From: an uncultured Chloroflexia bacterium
Lineage (GTDB): Bacteria > Chloroflexota > Chloroflexia > Thermomicrobiales > UBA6265
NCBI GenBank assembly: GCA_963750275.1
Contig: CAVVQC010000003.1
Location: 145,034-209,033, forward strand
Direction: 5' to 3'
Length of the DNA: 64,000 bases
Shown here: one piece after another, positions 37,758 through 41,464 of the stretch
How the letters are laid out: each line of letters opens with the position of its first letter
Numbering within the stretch: position 1 is the stretch's first letter
Position numbers and translations under genes: made by a program
Notes under the pieces: generated by a model
Databases searched by the model: none
Told to the model about the DNA's origin: nothing
What the model saw: only the letters and a program-made list of their open reading frames with translations

Positions 37758-38222
37758 ATGCATTCAGAAGATGTCGTGTATATGCGCGGAAAACTCGATC
37801 AGATTGTGGAGCTGGCCATCGATATCGAACGATGGCCGGAGATCCTGCCCCACTACCGCTGGGTCACGCTGCTGGATGGCGGTGGCGATCACAAGGTCGT
37901 GGAAATGGCTGCCCGGCGGGGGCGAATCCCGGTCCGCTGGCGGGCCACACAGGATATCGATCGCAGCGGTCCCACACCGATCATCAGATTCAAACATGTC
38001 TGGGGTGTTACCAAAGGAATGGACGTCGACTGGACGTTTGTGCCAACAGAAGAGCAGGTAGAAGTGCGCATTCGTCACGATTTCAATCCAAACTGGCCAA
38101 TTGTCGGCGCTCCAATCAGCGAGCGAATCATTGGTCCGCAATTCATCTCACCCATCGCCAATCTCACGCTGACCACCATCAAGGGCATCGTCGAGGGGCG
38201 TGATCCCCGGTTCCCGCAATGA
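37758..38222 (+). CDS. SRPBCC/START-fold polyketide cyclase/dehydrase-like protein
   Basis: 'DIERWPEILPHY', 'GMDVDWTF', 'VRIRHDF'; 154 aa. Confidence 0.8.
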   Translation: MHSEDVVYMRGKLDQIVELAIDIERWPEILPHYRWVTLLDGGGDHKVVEMAARRGRIPVRWRATQDIDRSGPTPIIRFKHVWGVTKGMDVDWTFVPTEEQVEVRIRHDFNPNWPIVGAPISERIIGPQFISPIANLTLTTIKGIVEGRDPRFPQ

Positions 38223-39454
38223 CGCGACGGGTCGTCATCACTGGCATCGGCGCCATTACGCCGATTGGCAATAGCGCCGAGGGGCTTTGGTCCGGAGTGC
38301 AACGCGGCACCTCGGCTGTGCAACGCGTCACCCGCTTCGATCCATCGAACTTTCAGAGCCAGGTCGCCGCACACGCCGACTTCGAACCACTCGATTACCT
38401 GACCGAGAAGCGCGCCCGCCGGCTCGATCGCTATTCGCAACTGGCGCTGGCCGCTGCGCAACAGGCGATCGACGATGCCGGGATCGAGCGGAAAGACCTG
38501 GCAGAGATTGGGGCAGGCGCCTATATCGGTTCCGCCCTGGGTGGCGTCGCCTATGGCGAGGAGCAGCATGAAGCCTATGTCCGATCGGGCACGCAAGGCG
38601 TCAGCCCGCTGCTGGCCCTCTCGGTCTTTGGCGGCGCGGCCTCGTCGAACATCTCGATCGAGTTTTCTTTGAACGGACCATGCCTCGCCTATGGCAACTC
38701 CTGCGCGGCGGGATTGATCGCCATTGGAGAAGCAGCGCGCCTGATAGCTGATGGCCGCGCAACGGTCATGCTGGCCGGAGGTGCGGAAGCGCCACTGGCG
38801 CCCCTCACCTTCGGCGCGTTCTCGCTGATCCGGGTGCTCAGTACGCGCAACGACGATCCCGCGACTGCCAGCCGTCCCTTCGATCGCGATCGCGATGGAT
38901 TCGTGATGGCCGAAGGGAGCTGCATGCTCGTGCTGGAAGACGCCGAATATGCTGCGGCTCGGGGCGCTCGGGTCTATGCGCAGATCGATGGTTTTGCCAC
39001 CACCAACGATGCCCATCACATGACCGCCCCGCTCGCGGAAGGTACCTTCGCCGCTCGGGCGATCTCCCAGGCCCTGGCCGATGCCGGACTGCCAGCCGAA
39101 GAGATCGGGTATGTCAATGCCCATGGCTCATCGACCGTGCTGAACGATTCGACCGAGTGCAAAGCGATCCGTATCGCGCTTGGCCGGCATGCCGAGCGCG
39201 TCGCCGTCAGTGGCACCAAAGGGCTGCACGGTCATGCCCTCGGCGCGACCGGCGCCATGGAAACCGCGATCTGCGCCATGGCATTGCAACGGGGCATGCT
39301 GCCGGGTACTGCGAATCTGCAGCATCTCGATCCGGCCTGCGATCTCGACCTGATTCCCCCAGGTGGCCGCGTCGAACAGGTGGAACACCTCGTCACCAAT
39401 GCCTTCGGGTTCGGTGGGGTAAACGCCAGCGTCGTCATGAGCGCAACGAATTAG
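38219..39454 (+). CDS. Beta-ketoacyl-ACP synthase II-like ketosynthase (FabF/KS-alpha family)
   Basis: 'RRVVITGIG', Cys-His-His triad 'NSCAAG', 'NAHGSST', 'KGLHGHALGA'; 'RPFDRDRDGFV', 'NAFGFGG'. Confidence 0.92.
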   Translation: MTRRVVITGIGAITPIGNSAEGLWSGVQRGTSAVQRVTRFDPSNFQSQVAAHADFEPLDYLTEKRARRLDRYSQLALAAAQQAIDDAGIERKDLAEIGAGAYIGSALGGVAYGEEQHEAYVRSGTQGVSPLLALSVFGGAASSNISIEFSLNGPCLAYGNSCAAGLIAIGEAARLIADGRATVMLAGGAEAPLAPLTFGAFSLIRVLSTRNDDPATASRPFDRDRDGFVMAEGSCMLVLEDAEYAAARGARVYAQIDGFATTNDAHHMTAPLAEGTFAARAISQALADAGLPAEEIGYVNAHGSSTVLNDSTECKAIRIALGRHAERVAVSGTKGLHGHALGATGAMETAICAMALQRGMLPGTANLQHLDPACDLDLIPPGGRVEQVEHLVTNAFGFGGVNASVVMSATN

Positions 39455-39543: not shown

Positions 39544-39704
39544 CTCGCCGCAGCGAGTGGTGGGGTCTACCATGCCTCCAACAGCGTGGGCGAATCATTT
39601 CGCAACCGCTCTAACGGTCCCGGATCGCATCTTCCATACTCAGCGTGCTCTGAATCGGAGCCCTTCACCAGCATGTCGTGACTTGAAGGAACGCCCCAGA
39701 TATG

Positions 39705-39718
39705 CGAACATTCGTTCG
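39705..39718. promoter_or_regulatory. Candidate LexA (Cheo/SOS) box GAAC-N4-GTTC
   Basis: CGAACATTCGTTCG directly upstream of RBS AAGGGAG and TTG 39737. Confidence 0.5.
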
Positions 39719-39736
39719 TACTAAGGGAGACGTTTC

Positions 39737-40753
39737 TTGCTCGAGCGCGCCAGCGGACAGTTCACGATCGACGGCCAGGTGGAAGACATTCTGGGCGGTA
39801 TCAGCGGGGCGGCACGCATCGCCCGCATCAGCCAAAGTTGCCAATTTACCGGGCAGCTCGAAGGCGAAAGCATGGCGGAATTCACTGCCGTGCTGCCGCG
39901 CGATGGCGACGGACGCTTCCACGGCTTCCAGCGGATCGCGGGAACGCTGGGCGAACGCGAAGGAACCTTTGTCGTGAGCGTGACCGGGGAGTACCGCAAG
40001 GGCGTGCCGCACGGTTCCTGGACCATCGTGCCGAAATCAGGCACCGGTGATTTCCTGCATATCCGGGGTAGCGGCGACTTTTCCCTGCCCGATGGGAAGC
40101 CCGGAAAATATCAGTTGGAGTTCGATGCGCGAAAACCGCGCGCGGCGAAGAACGACGTCGCGGCTGTTGCTGTCGCAGAGCCGAGCGTCAGTCCGGTCGA
40201 GACACCCGCTCCGGTCGAGATCCCGGTCGCGGAAGCCACCGACACCACCCCCGCTCCAGCAAAGCGCTCCCGCAAGCCACGCGCCAGCACCGCTGAGCCA
40301 CCCATGGAAGTCACCACCGAACCGCCCGCGAAACGCTCGCGTGCCCGTAAAGATGTGCCACCAGTTGCCGAGGTGCCTGCACCTACCAAGCCGGCAGCCA
40401 AACGAACGCGCAGGAAGCCCGCCGAGCCGGTCATGACTCCTGAACCCGTTATGGCCGAATCCGAGCCAAAACCAAAACGGTCGCGCAAGCCTGCAGCGGT
40501 TCAGCCCGCGATTATCGCGACTCCACCTGTTGCTGAATCCATTCCGGATCCGGTGCCTGCGCCGAAACCCAAGCGTTCTCGCAAGCCAGCGCCCGAGCAT
40601 CCCCCGGTCGAGCTCGCCCCAGTGGTAGCGGAGGTTGCGCCGGAACCAGCAGTGGTGAAACCACCCCGGCGCAAGAAGGACGCCCTTCCCGAACCGGTCG
40701 CGCTTCCCATCGCGGAACCCGCCCCTCGCCGTCGCCGCGCCAAGGCTGCCTGA
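39737..40753 (+). CDS. DUF3224-like N-terminal domain fused to a Pro/Ala/Lys/Arg-rich repetitive tail
   Basis: N-terminal 'FTGQLEG...GTLGEREGTFV...SWTIVPKSGTG...GSG' fits DUF3224; about 200-aa tail with 7 basic motifs such as PAKRSRKP. Confidence 0.75.
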   Translation: MLERASGQFTIDGQVEDILGGISGAARIARISQSCQFTGQLEGESMAEFTAVLPRDGDGRFHGFQRIAGTLGEREGTFVVSVTGEYRKGVPHGSWTIVPKSGTGDFLHIRGSGDFSLPDGKPGKYQLEFDARKPRAAKNDVAAVAVAEPSVSPVETPAPVEIPVAEATDTTPAPAKRSRKPRASTAEPPMEVTTEPPAKRSRARKDVPPVAEVPAPTKPAAKRTRRKPAEPVMTPEPVMAESEPKPKRSRKPAAVQPAIIATPPVAESIPDPVPAPKPKRSRKPAPEHPPVELAPVVAEVAPEPAVVKPPRRKKDALPEPVALPIAEPAPRRRRAKAA

Positions 40754-40779: not shown

Positions 40780-41464
40780 CTACGGAGCCTCGAACCCGAT
40801 CTCCGTGTGGGTGCCGTCACAAAAGGGTTTGTTCTTCGACTGACCACAACGGCACAGCGTGACCCGGTTGCGTACTTCGTAGGTAAAACCGTCCTGGGTG
40901 GTGATGGGAATGCCGCCACGTACCCAGAGCGGACCGTTGGGTACGGTCGCGATCGACGCATCGAACCCCGGTTCGAGCGGCGCTCCACCCGGTTCGGCAA
41001 CCGCAAGACGGCCGGAGGGGCAGTTCGACACCATGGTGATCAACCGGTCGCGCACTTCCGGGTCGTTGCTCTGCCGAATCATCTTCCAGACATTGGTGAC
41101 GCGGTTGCCGCAGAACCCGGCATGCTCGCAAAGCGATTCATCGTCGGTCATAACGATCGCGTCCGCCTCGAACGAGCGGGCCCGCTCCGCCCGGGGAGCG
41201 CGGTCAGCCGTCAAGGCCGCATCCGGGAAGCCTTCGCTTGCGTGCGAGCCATCGCAAAACGGCTTGTTCTTCGAGTTTCCGCAACGGCAGAGGGCATAGC
41301 GCGCCTGCGGCTCAGATGATTCGACCTTTCCGCCCACCGGATCCCAGGCCAGCGGTTCGCCCGCGAGCACTCTCGACGGGATGCCGGGTGGTCATCGGCA
41401 CACCGCCTCGCACGATATAGGGCCCACCCTCAGTGATCGTGATGGAATAATCCTGCTCAGCCAT
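40780..41464 (-). CDS. CDGSH iron-sulfur protein (CDGSH - divergent Fe-S - CDGSH); +1 frameshift near 41361
   Basis: 'GGPYIVRG', 'LCRCGNSKNKPFCDGSH', 'LCEHAGFC...CPSG', 'LCRCGQSKNKPFCDGTH'; RBS GGGGAGG. Confidence 0.88.

Follow-up and report, generated by a model that had tools for sequence, protein, structure and literature searches.

What controls the gene at positions 39737 to 40753 (plus strand) of this stretch, and what might its product do? The stretch, called the window below, comprises 64,000 nucleotides of contig C3 in the genome of an uncultured soil Thermomicrobiales bacterium (4.32 Mb, 60% G+C, 13 contigs). The gene encodes a 338-amino-acid protein, starts at a TTG codon, and joins a DUF3224 beta-barrel to a long basic tail. 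SOS regulons outside the model bacteria contain many genes that have no assigned role, and those of the Chloroflexota are almost unexplored. Our comparisons suggest that the gene is very probably a new member of the SOS regulon, narrowly distributed and of unusual architecture. We estimate a probability of roughly 0.6 that the gene forms a self-contained, monocistronic SOS unit, taken jointly with the rest of our explanation, in which LexA would control the gene and the tail would tether the barrel to nucleic acid.

The putative LexA operator, CGAACATTCGTTCG, occupies positions 39705 to 39718 (plus strand) and is of the Cheo type. The four nucleotides TACT separate it from the ribosome-binding site AAGGGAG (39723 to 39729, plus strand), and the box lies 19 nt 5’ of the start codon at 39737. 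A sequence-only reading of this DNA had placed the box 4 nt before the ribosome-binding site and had described the product as a DUF3224-like barrel fused to about 200 amino acids with seven basic motifs. Our analysis agrees with that description: a Pfam match to DUF3224 is followed by a tail of 203 amino acids, and the seven motifs are all seven of the clusters with at least four Lys or Arg per seven residues. By its count in the window alone the box is not significant, as GAAC-N4-GTTC occurs twice compared to an expectation of 1.38, and 38 of 100 shuffled sequences reach two; its significance comes from its position and its conservation. The second core, CGAACCCCGGTTCG (40962 to 40975, no strand assigned), has a GC-rich spacer, lies inside the neighboring CDGSH gene and is outside the system. 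It is absent from another genome, G002, despite the same CDGSH neighbor, which supports the earlier view that it is a chance occurrence.

We compared the orthologous loci of five other genomes of the same genus, giving six genomes with the window locus included, together with those of metagenome assemblies. Locus scans of metagenomes and genomes for more copies yielded only three and four loci, respectively. The comparison provided 12 upstream sequences, including two near-identical copies, from loci whose proteins are 43-88% identical to that of the window. The block TTG-N17-TG[C/A]GAACAT-NN-GTTCG-TA, followed by GGAGG and a start codon, was invariant in all 12 regions, and the rest of the upstream DNA could not be aligned. 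Both arms of the palindrome were retained (12/12), with variation in the spacer only at the two central bases (TC, TA, TT, AC, GT or AT), and the start codon after the conserved GGAGG was TTG, GTG or ATG. One DUF3224-gene orthologue carries exactly the 14-mer of the lexA promoter, CGAACATGTGTTCG. The genes around the block differ from locus to locus. Of 11 loci, three have a ketosynthase upstream and another has a luciferase-like gene there; the window and G002 are the only ones with the CDGSH gene on the downstream side. Since the neighbors differ and the block is invariant, we consider the promoter, operator, ribosome-binding site and open reading frame to be a conserved mobile unit. In the window, the 3’ limit of the transcription unit is set by the convergent CDGSH iron-sulfur protein gene (40780 to 41370, minus strand; Pfam zf-CDGSH, E-value 2e-36).

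Several orthologue records (P0006, P0007, P0009, P0014, P0041 and P0045) have an annotated start that is too far upstream. Such records translate the LexA box itself, for example as MRTFVRT (ATG CGA ACA TTC GTT CGT AC). Public gene calls that start too early thus hide the operator in the annotation of the orthologues.

The genome encodes a single LexA protein of 213 amino acids (C11:859034-859675), with the Pfam LexA_DNA_bind domain (winged helix-turn-helix) and an intact Peptidase_S24 domain. The only other match to the LexA DNA-binding model was a weak one to HrcA, which is not a LexA paralogue. The lexA promoter reads TTGACA-CGAACATGTGTTCG-CCA-TATAAT, with the palindrome in the spacer between the -35 and -10 hexamers, and this palindrome recurs in all six of the lexA promoters that we identified in the genus, one of which has a GTTCT right arm. 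At recA, TAGAAT is followed by a one-mismatch box, TTAGAACAGAAATTCTAA, which is conserved in the genus and was entered as AGAACAGAAATTCT in our comparison of regulon membership. The sequence-only reading had pointed to orthologues of the gene and to recA and lexA of this genome as the places where the box should recur, and the box or its one-mismatch form was found at the 12 orthologues compared, at recA and at lexA. One-mismatch boxes also precede uvrA (CGAACGTTTGATCG) and recG, and exact core palindromes precede recQ (CGAACACATGTTCG) and priA. For uvrA, recG, priA, the RecQ-type helicase gene and a GIY-YIG uvrC-like gene, a box with at most one core mismatch lies no more than about 50 nt from the start; such boxes also stand ahead of a gene for DUF3072, one for a glyoxalase/VOC protein and some genes without an assigned role. 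The exact sequence CGAAC-N4-GTTCG occurs at 17 sites in the genome, compared to about 5 expected by base-composition arithmetic, and chance would place about 1 in all intergenic DNA and about 0.2 in the 50 nt that precede gene starts. The exact sites with an A/T-rich spacer in promoter position are those of lexA, recQ and the DUF3224-tail gene.

The palindrome is that of the Cheo-box SOS regulon (CGAAC-N4-GTTCG) known from Firmicutes, Actinobacteria and Chloroflexi, and its match to TACGAACATATGTTCGTA, the Firmicutes LexA footprint consensus (PMC2248561), covers the flanking GTA as well. The likeness extends to an operator that overlaps core promoter elements, to an autoregulated lexA and to related boxes at recA and uvrA. 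Bacillus subtilis LexA recognizes this motif too. In contrast to the Cheo-box regulons described so far, the set of genes with boxes here also includes priA, recG, recQ, the DUF3072 gene and the VOC protein gene. To our knowledge, a gene for a DUF3224 domain with a tail is part of no described SOS regulon.

We propose that a LexA dimer bound to CGAACATTCGTTCG would block RNA polymerase, as the operator overlaps what are probably an extended -10 element (TGcGAACAT) and the start of transcription, with a TTGAAG -35 element 17 nt further upstream. DNA damage would stimulate, through RecA, the self-cleavage of LexA by way of its S24 domain, and the promoter would be released. The candidate -35 hexamer lies at 39683 to 39688 (plus strand), and its TTG is invariant in the 12 orthologous promoters, exactly 17 nt 5’ of GAACAT. 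The candidate extended -10 element, TG-C-GAACAT, lies at 39703 to 39711 (plus strand) over the left arm of the operator, with TG and GAACAT both invariant (12/12). The promoter would consist of a -35 element of the form TTGAAx and a weak -10 element, GAACAT, with a spacer of 17 nt between them whose last two bases are TG; this double use of GAACAT may explain why its invariance goes beyond what the palindrome needs.

The same overlap raises the possibility that the conserved block is a promoter only, or serves as operator for a different regulator, and that the gene lies outside the DNA-damage response. GAACAT is invariant where the spacer of a pure LexA site could vary at its first two bases, and the core palindrome recurs, as AGAACATATGTTCT, in about 22 promoters, an unusually large set for LexA sites. 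However, a -10 element has no need of dyad symmetry, yet the right arm GTTCG keeps it exactly and never varies, and in the lexA promoter the palindrome sits in the spacer and not in the -10 element. A different regulator is further opposed by the boxes preceding recA, uvrA, recG, recQ and priA, and by the presence of only one LexA-type protein in the genome. We consider both versions of this explanation improbable.

Genes for DUF3224 proteins that lack the tail also bear on LexA control. DUF3224 is present in 61 of the 151 genomes of the order; the tailed architecture was found in 46 proteins, all from Thermomicrobiales, and those with a name are called hypothetical or DUF3224 proteins. We compared 35 tail-less DUF3224 genes for upstream boxes. 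A perfect box (CGAACACATGTTCG) lies 35-58 nt upstream in each of the four tail-less loci of one genus, a perfect box was also present at the tail-less DUF3224 gene of one genome from another family, and the two loci of a third genus have a box with one mismatch, AGAACATAYGATCT, upstream. In three of the four loci of the first genus and in the genome of the other family, the next gene after DUF3224 has a weak match to the glyoxalase fold; we call it VOC-like with the reservation that the Pfam Glyoxalase match is below threshold (E-value 0.0066, 17.3 bits compared to a cut-off of 20.6). In a maximum-likelihood tree the tailed proteins formed one clade (support 100/100) on a long branch of 1.5 changes per site. 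The presence of a box was clustered on the tree (none of 500 shuffles gave a value as low), and at least three changes are needed to account for its distribution. Judged by these boxes, LexA control is recurrent in DUF3224 within the order, albeit not universal. Because of the invariant block in the orthologues, the matching palindrome at lexA, the boxes at SOS genes and those at tail-less DUF3224 genes, we consider SOS control of the DUF3224-tail gene very likely.

Boxes elsewhere in the genome adjoin the starts of priA (C11:623826-626291), recG (C11:637438-639912) and the RecQ-type helicase gene (C6:27686-30877), the last of which encodes an N-terminal extension of about 300 amino acids; the three boxes suggest a helicase-rich SOS regulon. 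The VOC (glyoxalase/bleomycin-resistance) gene at C11:146224-146625 (minus strand) lies 53 nt behind AGAACGGTTGTTCG (C11:146677-146690). At C9:30564-32544, a dnaN-like beta-clamp gene and a divergent gene for a 207-amino-acid protein without a Pfam match flank a pair of LexA-type boxes, AGAACACTTGATCT and AGAACACGCGTTCG. The DUF3072 gene (C7:500034-500369, minus strand) stands behind TAGAACATCTATTCTA, and a gene for a 125-amino-acid protein without a Pfam match (C7:1202968-1203345, plus strand) follows two boxes with one mismatch each; the upstream sequences make these two genes additional SOS candidates. The genome also contains about 22 copies of the promoter TTGACA-N5-AGAACATATGTTCT-ATACT, each with a perfect LexA-type palindrome in the spacer, for example at C7:611575-611760, C5:747901-748088, C6:309992-310169 and C3:236376-236565, all outside the window. 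These promoters are followed by a conserved predicted transcript of about 150 nt that begins with AAGCGGCAC and occurs in three sequence variants. Twelve copies of the element are 91-98% identical over 165-200 nt, and the DNA upstream is unique to each copy. No Rfam match to the repeated element was found, and it looks like either a multicopy small RNA with an SOS promoter or a mobile promoter element.

The N-terminal part of the protein (amino acids 1-135; 39737 to 40141, plus strand) was assigned to DUF3224 by Pfam, AlphaFold and Foldseek. The Pfam match (PF11528) covers amino acids 5-129 and profile positions 1-126 of 126, with an E-value of 3.4e-26 and 91.9 bits compared to a cut-off of 25. 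AlphaFold predicted an eight-stranded barrel over amino acids 1-130 at a pLDDT of 80-90. Foldseek matched the model to 2Q03 (TM-score 0.76-0.78) and 2OOJ (TM-score 0.70-0.72), both of them crystal structures of uncharacterized DUF3224 proteins, and the two PDB entries were matched by sequence as well. The full-length profile, the eight-stranded barrel and the loop signature SGTGD-x-x-H/L-x-x-G are common to the window protein and these DUF3224/SO1590-like proteins. Among the 30 tailed proteins that we aligned, the barrel is highly conserved up to the invariant EFD-x-RKPR with which it ends. The next Foldseek matches were weak (E-value about 0.01, TM-score 0.35-0.5) and comprised the Diels-Alderases AbyU and AbmU, a pyocyanin demethylase, dirigent proteins and allene oxide cyclase. 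The modeled barrel resembles the allene-oxide-cyclase-like class, and its weak structural neighbors all hold hydrophobic small molecules. Among the papers of the literature library that we searched, none mentions DUF3224. We rejected a secreted or membrane protein, as no hydrophobic N-terminus or segment was seen in the sequence, and a prophage gene, as the neighbors are metabolic genes. A second DUF3224 copy in the genome (C7:308396-308765) consists of two profile pieces in different frames and is likely a frameshifted pseudogene.

The structural neighbors and the position of the gene raise a further possibility, that the protein belongs with the adjacent ketosynthase-cyclase operon as a tailoring or cyclase-type enzyme, its barrel acting on a polyketide or lipid intermediate. 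AbyU and AbmU act in polyketide pathways, allene oxide cyclase is a further distant neighbor, and the ketosynthase immediately precedes the gene in three places, namely the window, G002 and one metagenome contig. The beta-ketoacyl synthase of the window (38219 to 39454, plus strand; Pfam) is, however, the last gene of a separate operon, and it is separated by a gap of 282 nt from the DUF3224-tail gene, which has a conserved promoter of its own. The small share of loci with an adjacent ketosynthase, in a gene that moves with its own promoter and box, the weakness of all structural matches beyond DUF3224, and a basic tail of 200 amino acids that would be left unexplained make a role in the operon very improbable.

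The tail (amino acids 136-338; 40142 to 40750, plus strand) is predicted to be intrinsically disordered, with an AlphaFold pLDDT of about 40 over its 203 amino acids. It has a net charge of +13, and its seven basic clusters are about 21-32 amino acids apart, with Pro/Ala/Val/Glu spacers between them. The statistics that follow come from the alignment of 30 of the 46 tailed proteins. Their tails are 136-258 amino acids long, an addition by the Thermomicrobiales clade to what in 2OOJ and 2Q03 is a stand-alone domain of about 135 amino acids. Each tail has 5-10 basic clusters with the consensus (P/A)3-K-[P/R]-x-R-[R/K]-[R/K]-K at a median spacing of 24 residues (range 19-48); the spacers, about 16 amino acids of Pro, Ala, Val and Glu, each have a net charge close to -1.8, and aromatic residues are nearly absent. 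A tandem-repeat search of the tail DNA gave nothing meaningful, so the periodicity does not come from recent DNA duplication. A scan of the genome for KRxR-type repeats found no other protein with three or more such motifs. One metagenome contig carries a ketosynthase 90% identical to that of the window, next to which the DUF3224-tail protein is only about 48% identical; by this measure, the tail changes far more rapidly than the sequence around it.

Regular clusters of Lys and Arg in an SOS protein make DNA, possibly RNA, the most economical target, and we give the tail about an even chance of binding nucleic acid. It would act as a multivalent electrostatic tether to nucleic acid or the nucleoid, which would concentrate the barrel on DNA while damage persists. 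The Lys/Ala/Pro-rich tails of mycobacterial Ku and Streptomyces TopA bind DNA non-specifically. Non-specific DNA binding has also been reported for the Lys/Ala/Pro-rich tails of mycobacterial HBHA and HupB (PMC10665949). The DUF3224 tail is likewise a low-complexity, Pro/Ala-containing basic extension on a folded domain, but it differs from these four in having Arg-rich clusters about 24 amino acids apart, acidic spacers, no PAKKA or KAAK repeats and a far lower charge density. The sequence-only reading had called the tail histone-like, a term that applies only loosely: with Arg-containing K-x-x-R-R-K clusters, acidic spacers and a net charge of +13 over 203 amino acids, its composition is unlike that of H1 or HupB. 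An H1-like tail was rejected on the same grounds of composition, together with the missing PAKKA/KAAK repeats and the content of 12% Asp and Glu. In Myxococcus xanthus CarD, an HMGA-like AT-hook and acidic region is fused to a bacterial domain, which it tethers to DNA. CarD shares with the window protein the arrangement of repeated short basic motifs, interspersed with acidic sequence, on a folded domain, with DNA tethering a prediction in our case. In contrast to CarD, the tail lacks the R-G-R-P core, and an AT-hook was rejected since this GRP core was found neither in the tail nor in the alignment. CarD is not, as far as we know, encoded by an SOS regulon gene.

The best-conserved element of the tail is the C-terminal module KPxRRKK-x-PPEPVxLPVAxxxPxRxRRAKAA, which in the window protein reads KPPRRKK-x-LPEPVALPIAEPAPRRRRAKAA-COOH (40658 to 40750, plus strand). 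Of the 30 aligned proteins, 29 end in -AA and most in -KAA, with Lys, Thr or Glu at position -3; in the whole genome only 6 of 3499 crude open reading frames end in KAA. The module may be a partner-binding peptide or a degron, so that the conserved RRAKAA end would serve as a partner contact or as a signal for proteolytic turnover that removes the protein afterwards. Signals of the ssrA and MuA type at the C-terminus are recognized by ClpX, and E. coli RecN ends in LAA. The likeness to these signals is in the terminal Ala-Ala after basic residues on a predicted damage-induced protein. Position -3 is Lys here, not the Leu or Tyr of ssrA-type signals, and the tmRNA tag of this genome, GNSELAYAA, ends in YAA. 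A C-terminal degron is possible, albeit doubtful.

Several observations weigh against the proposal of an SOS-controlled, nucleic-acid-tethered barrel. A consensus promoter scan called no sigma-70 promoter at the locus, so the promoter elements were assigned from conservation; GAACAT matches TATAAT at 3 of 6 positions, and its invariance could reflect promoter function alone. No box was found at 28 of the 35 tail-less DUF3224 genes, which indicates that SOS control is not a property of the whole domain family. The clade is known from metagenome-assembled genomes and metagenomes, and the support for the proposal is comparative. The barrel fold, as compared by Foldseek, gives no sign of a DNA-related activity or of a nucleic-acid enzyme. 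The tail is a polyampholyte (19% Lys and Arg, 12% Asp and Glu, net charge +9 to +26) and is much less basic than tails proven to bind DNA. A database search with the tail alone matched only the same family and found no homologous tail on a known DNA-binding protein. The -KAA end, finally, has no hydrophobic residue at position -3, where ssrA-type tags have one.

The points on the tail could also speak for an SOS-controlled protein whose tail does something other than bind nucleic acid. It could serve as a spacer or an entropic bristle, bind a different polyanion (polyphosphate, an anionic membrane or the ribosome), or be mainly a disordered region of fast turnover. The moderate net charge, the acidic spacers, the lack of a homologous tail on DNA-binding proteins and the fast evolution, with about 48% overall identity beside a ketosynthase at 90%, are all consistent with such a tail. 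However, the number, spacing and consensus of the Lys/Arg clusters are kept across 30 sequences without DNA repeats, which points to a specific multivalent ligand; membrane binding would call for aromatic or hydrophobic residues for insertion, and the tail has none; and among polyanions, DNA would be the most abundant in the cytoplasm that is relevant to an SOS protein. We regard a tail of this kind as unlikely, and prefer the nucleic-acid tether. The sequence-only reading had suggested a DNA-damage-inducible nucleoid or repair accessory protein. Its regulatory half is supported by the 12 of 12 orthologous promoters, the match to the lexA operator and the boxes at recA, uvrA, recG, recQ and priA; its suggestion of a repair protein finds no counterpart in the fold, a barrel of small-molecule type.

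The tailed form is restricted to one uncultured Thermomicrobiales lineage (46 sequences), which limits the reach of the finding. Within that lineage, a promoter, operator and open reading frame that travel as one unit make a clean SOS candidate, and the gene links DUF3224, a family with two crystal structures, to the DNA-damage response. The regularly spaced basic clusters offer a bacterial case in which the idea of a multivalent disordered tether can be tested. In sister lineages, tail-less DUF3224 is paired with a protein that weakly resembles glyoxalase/bleomycin-resistance proteins under one LexA box. The fold class, the LexA control and this weak VOC partner suggest, as a matter of speculation, that the protein deals with a genotoxic small molecule instead of taking part in the chemistry of DNA repair. 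A further and rather unlikely extension is that the protein is a damage-induced, nucleoid-tethered ligand barrel, with a tail that coats or condenses DNA, possibly by phase separation, and a barrel that captures or converts a DNA-reactive small molecule at the chromosome. If true, the SOS response would here have a protective function separate from repair, mutagenesis and division arrest, and the DUF3224 family would gain its first functional handle.

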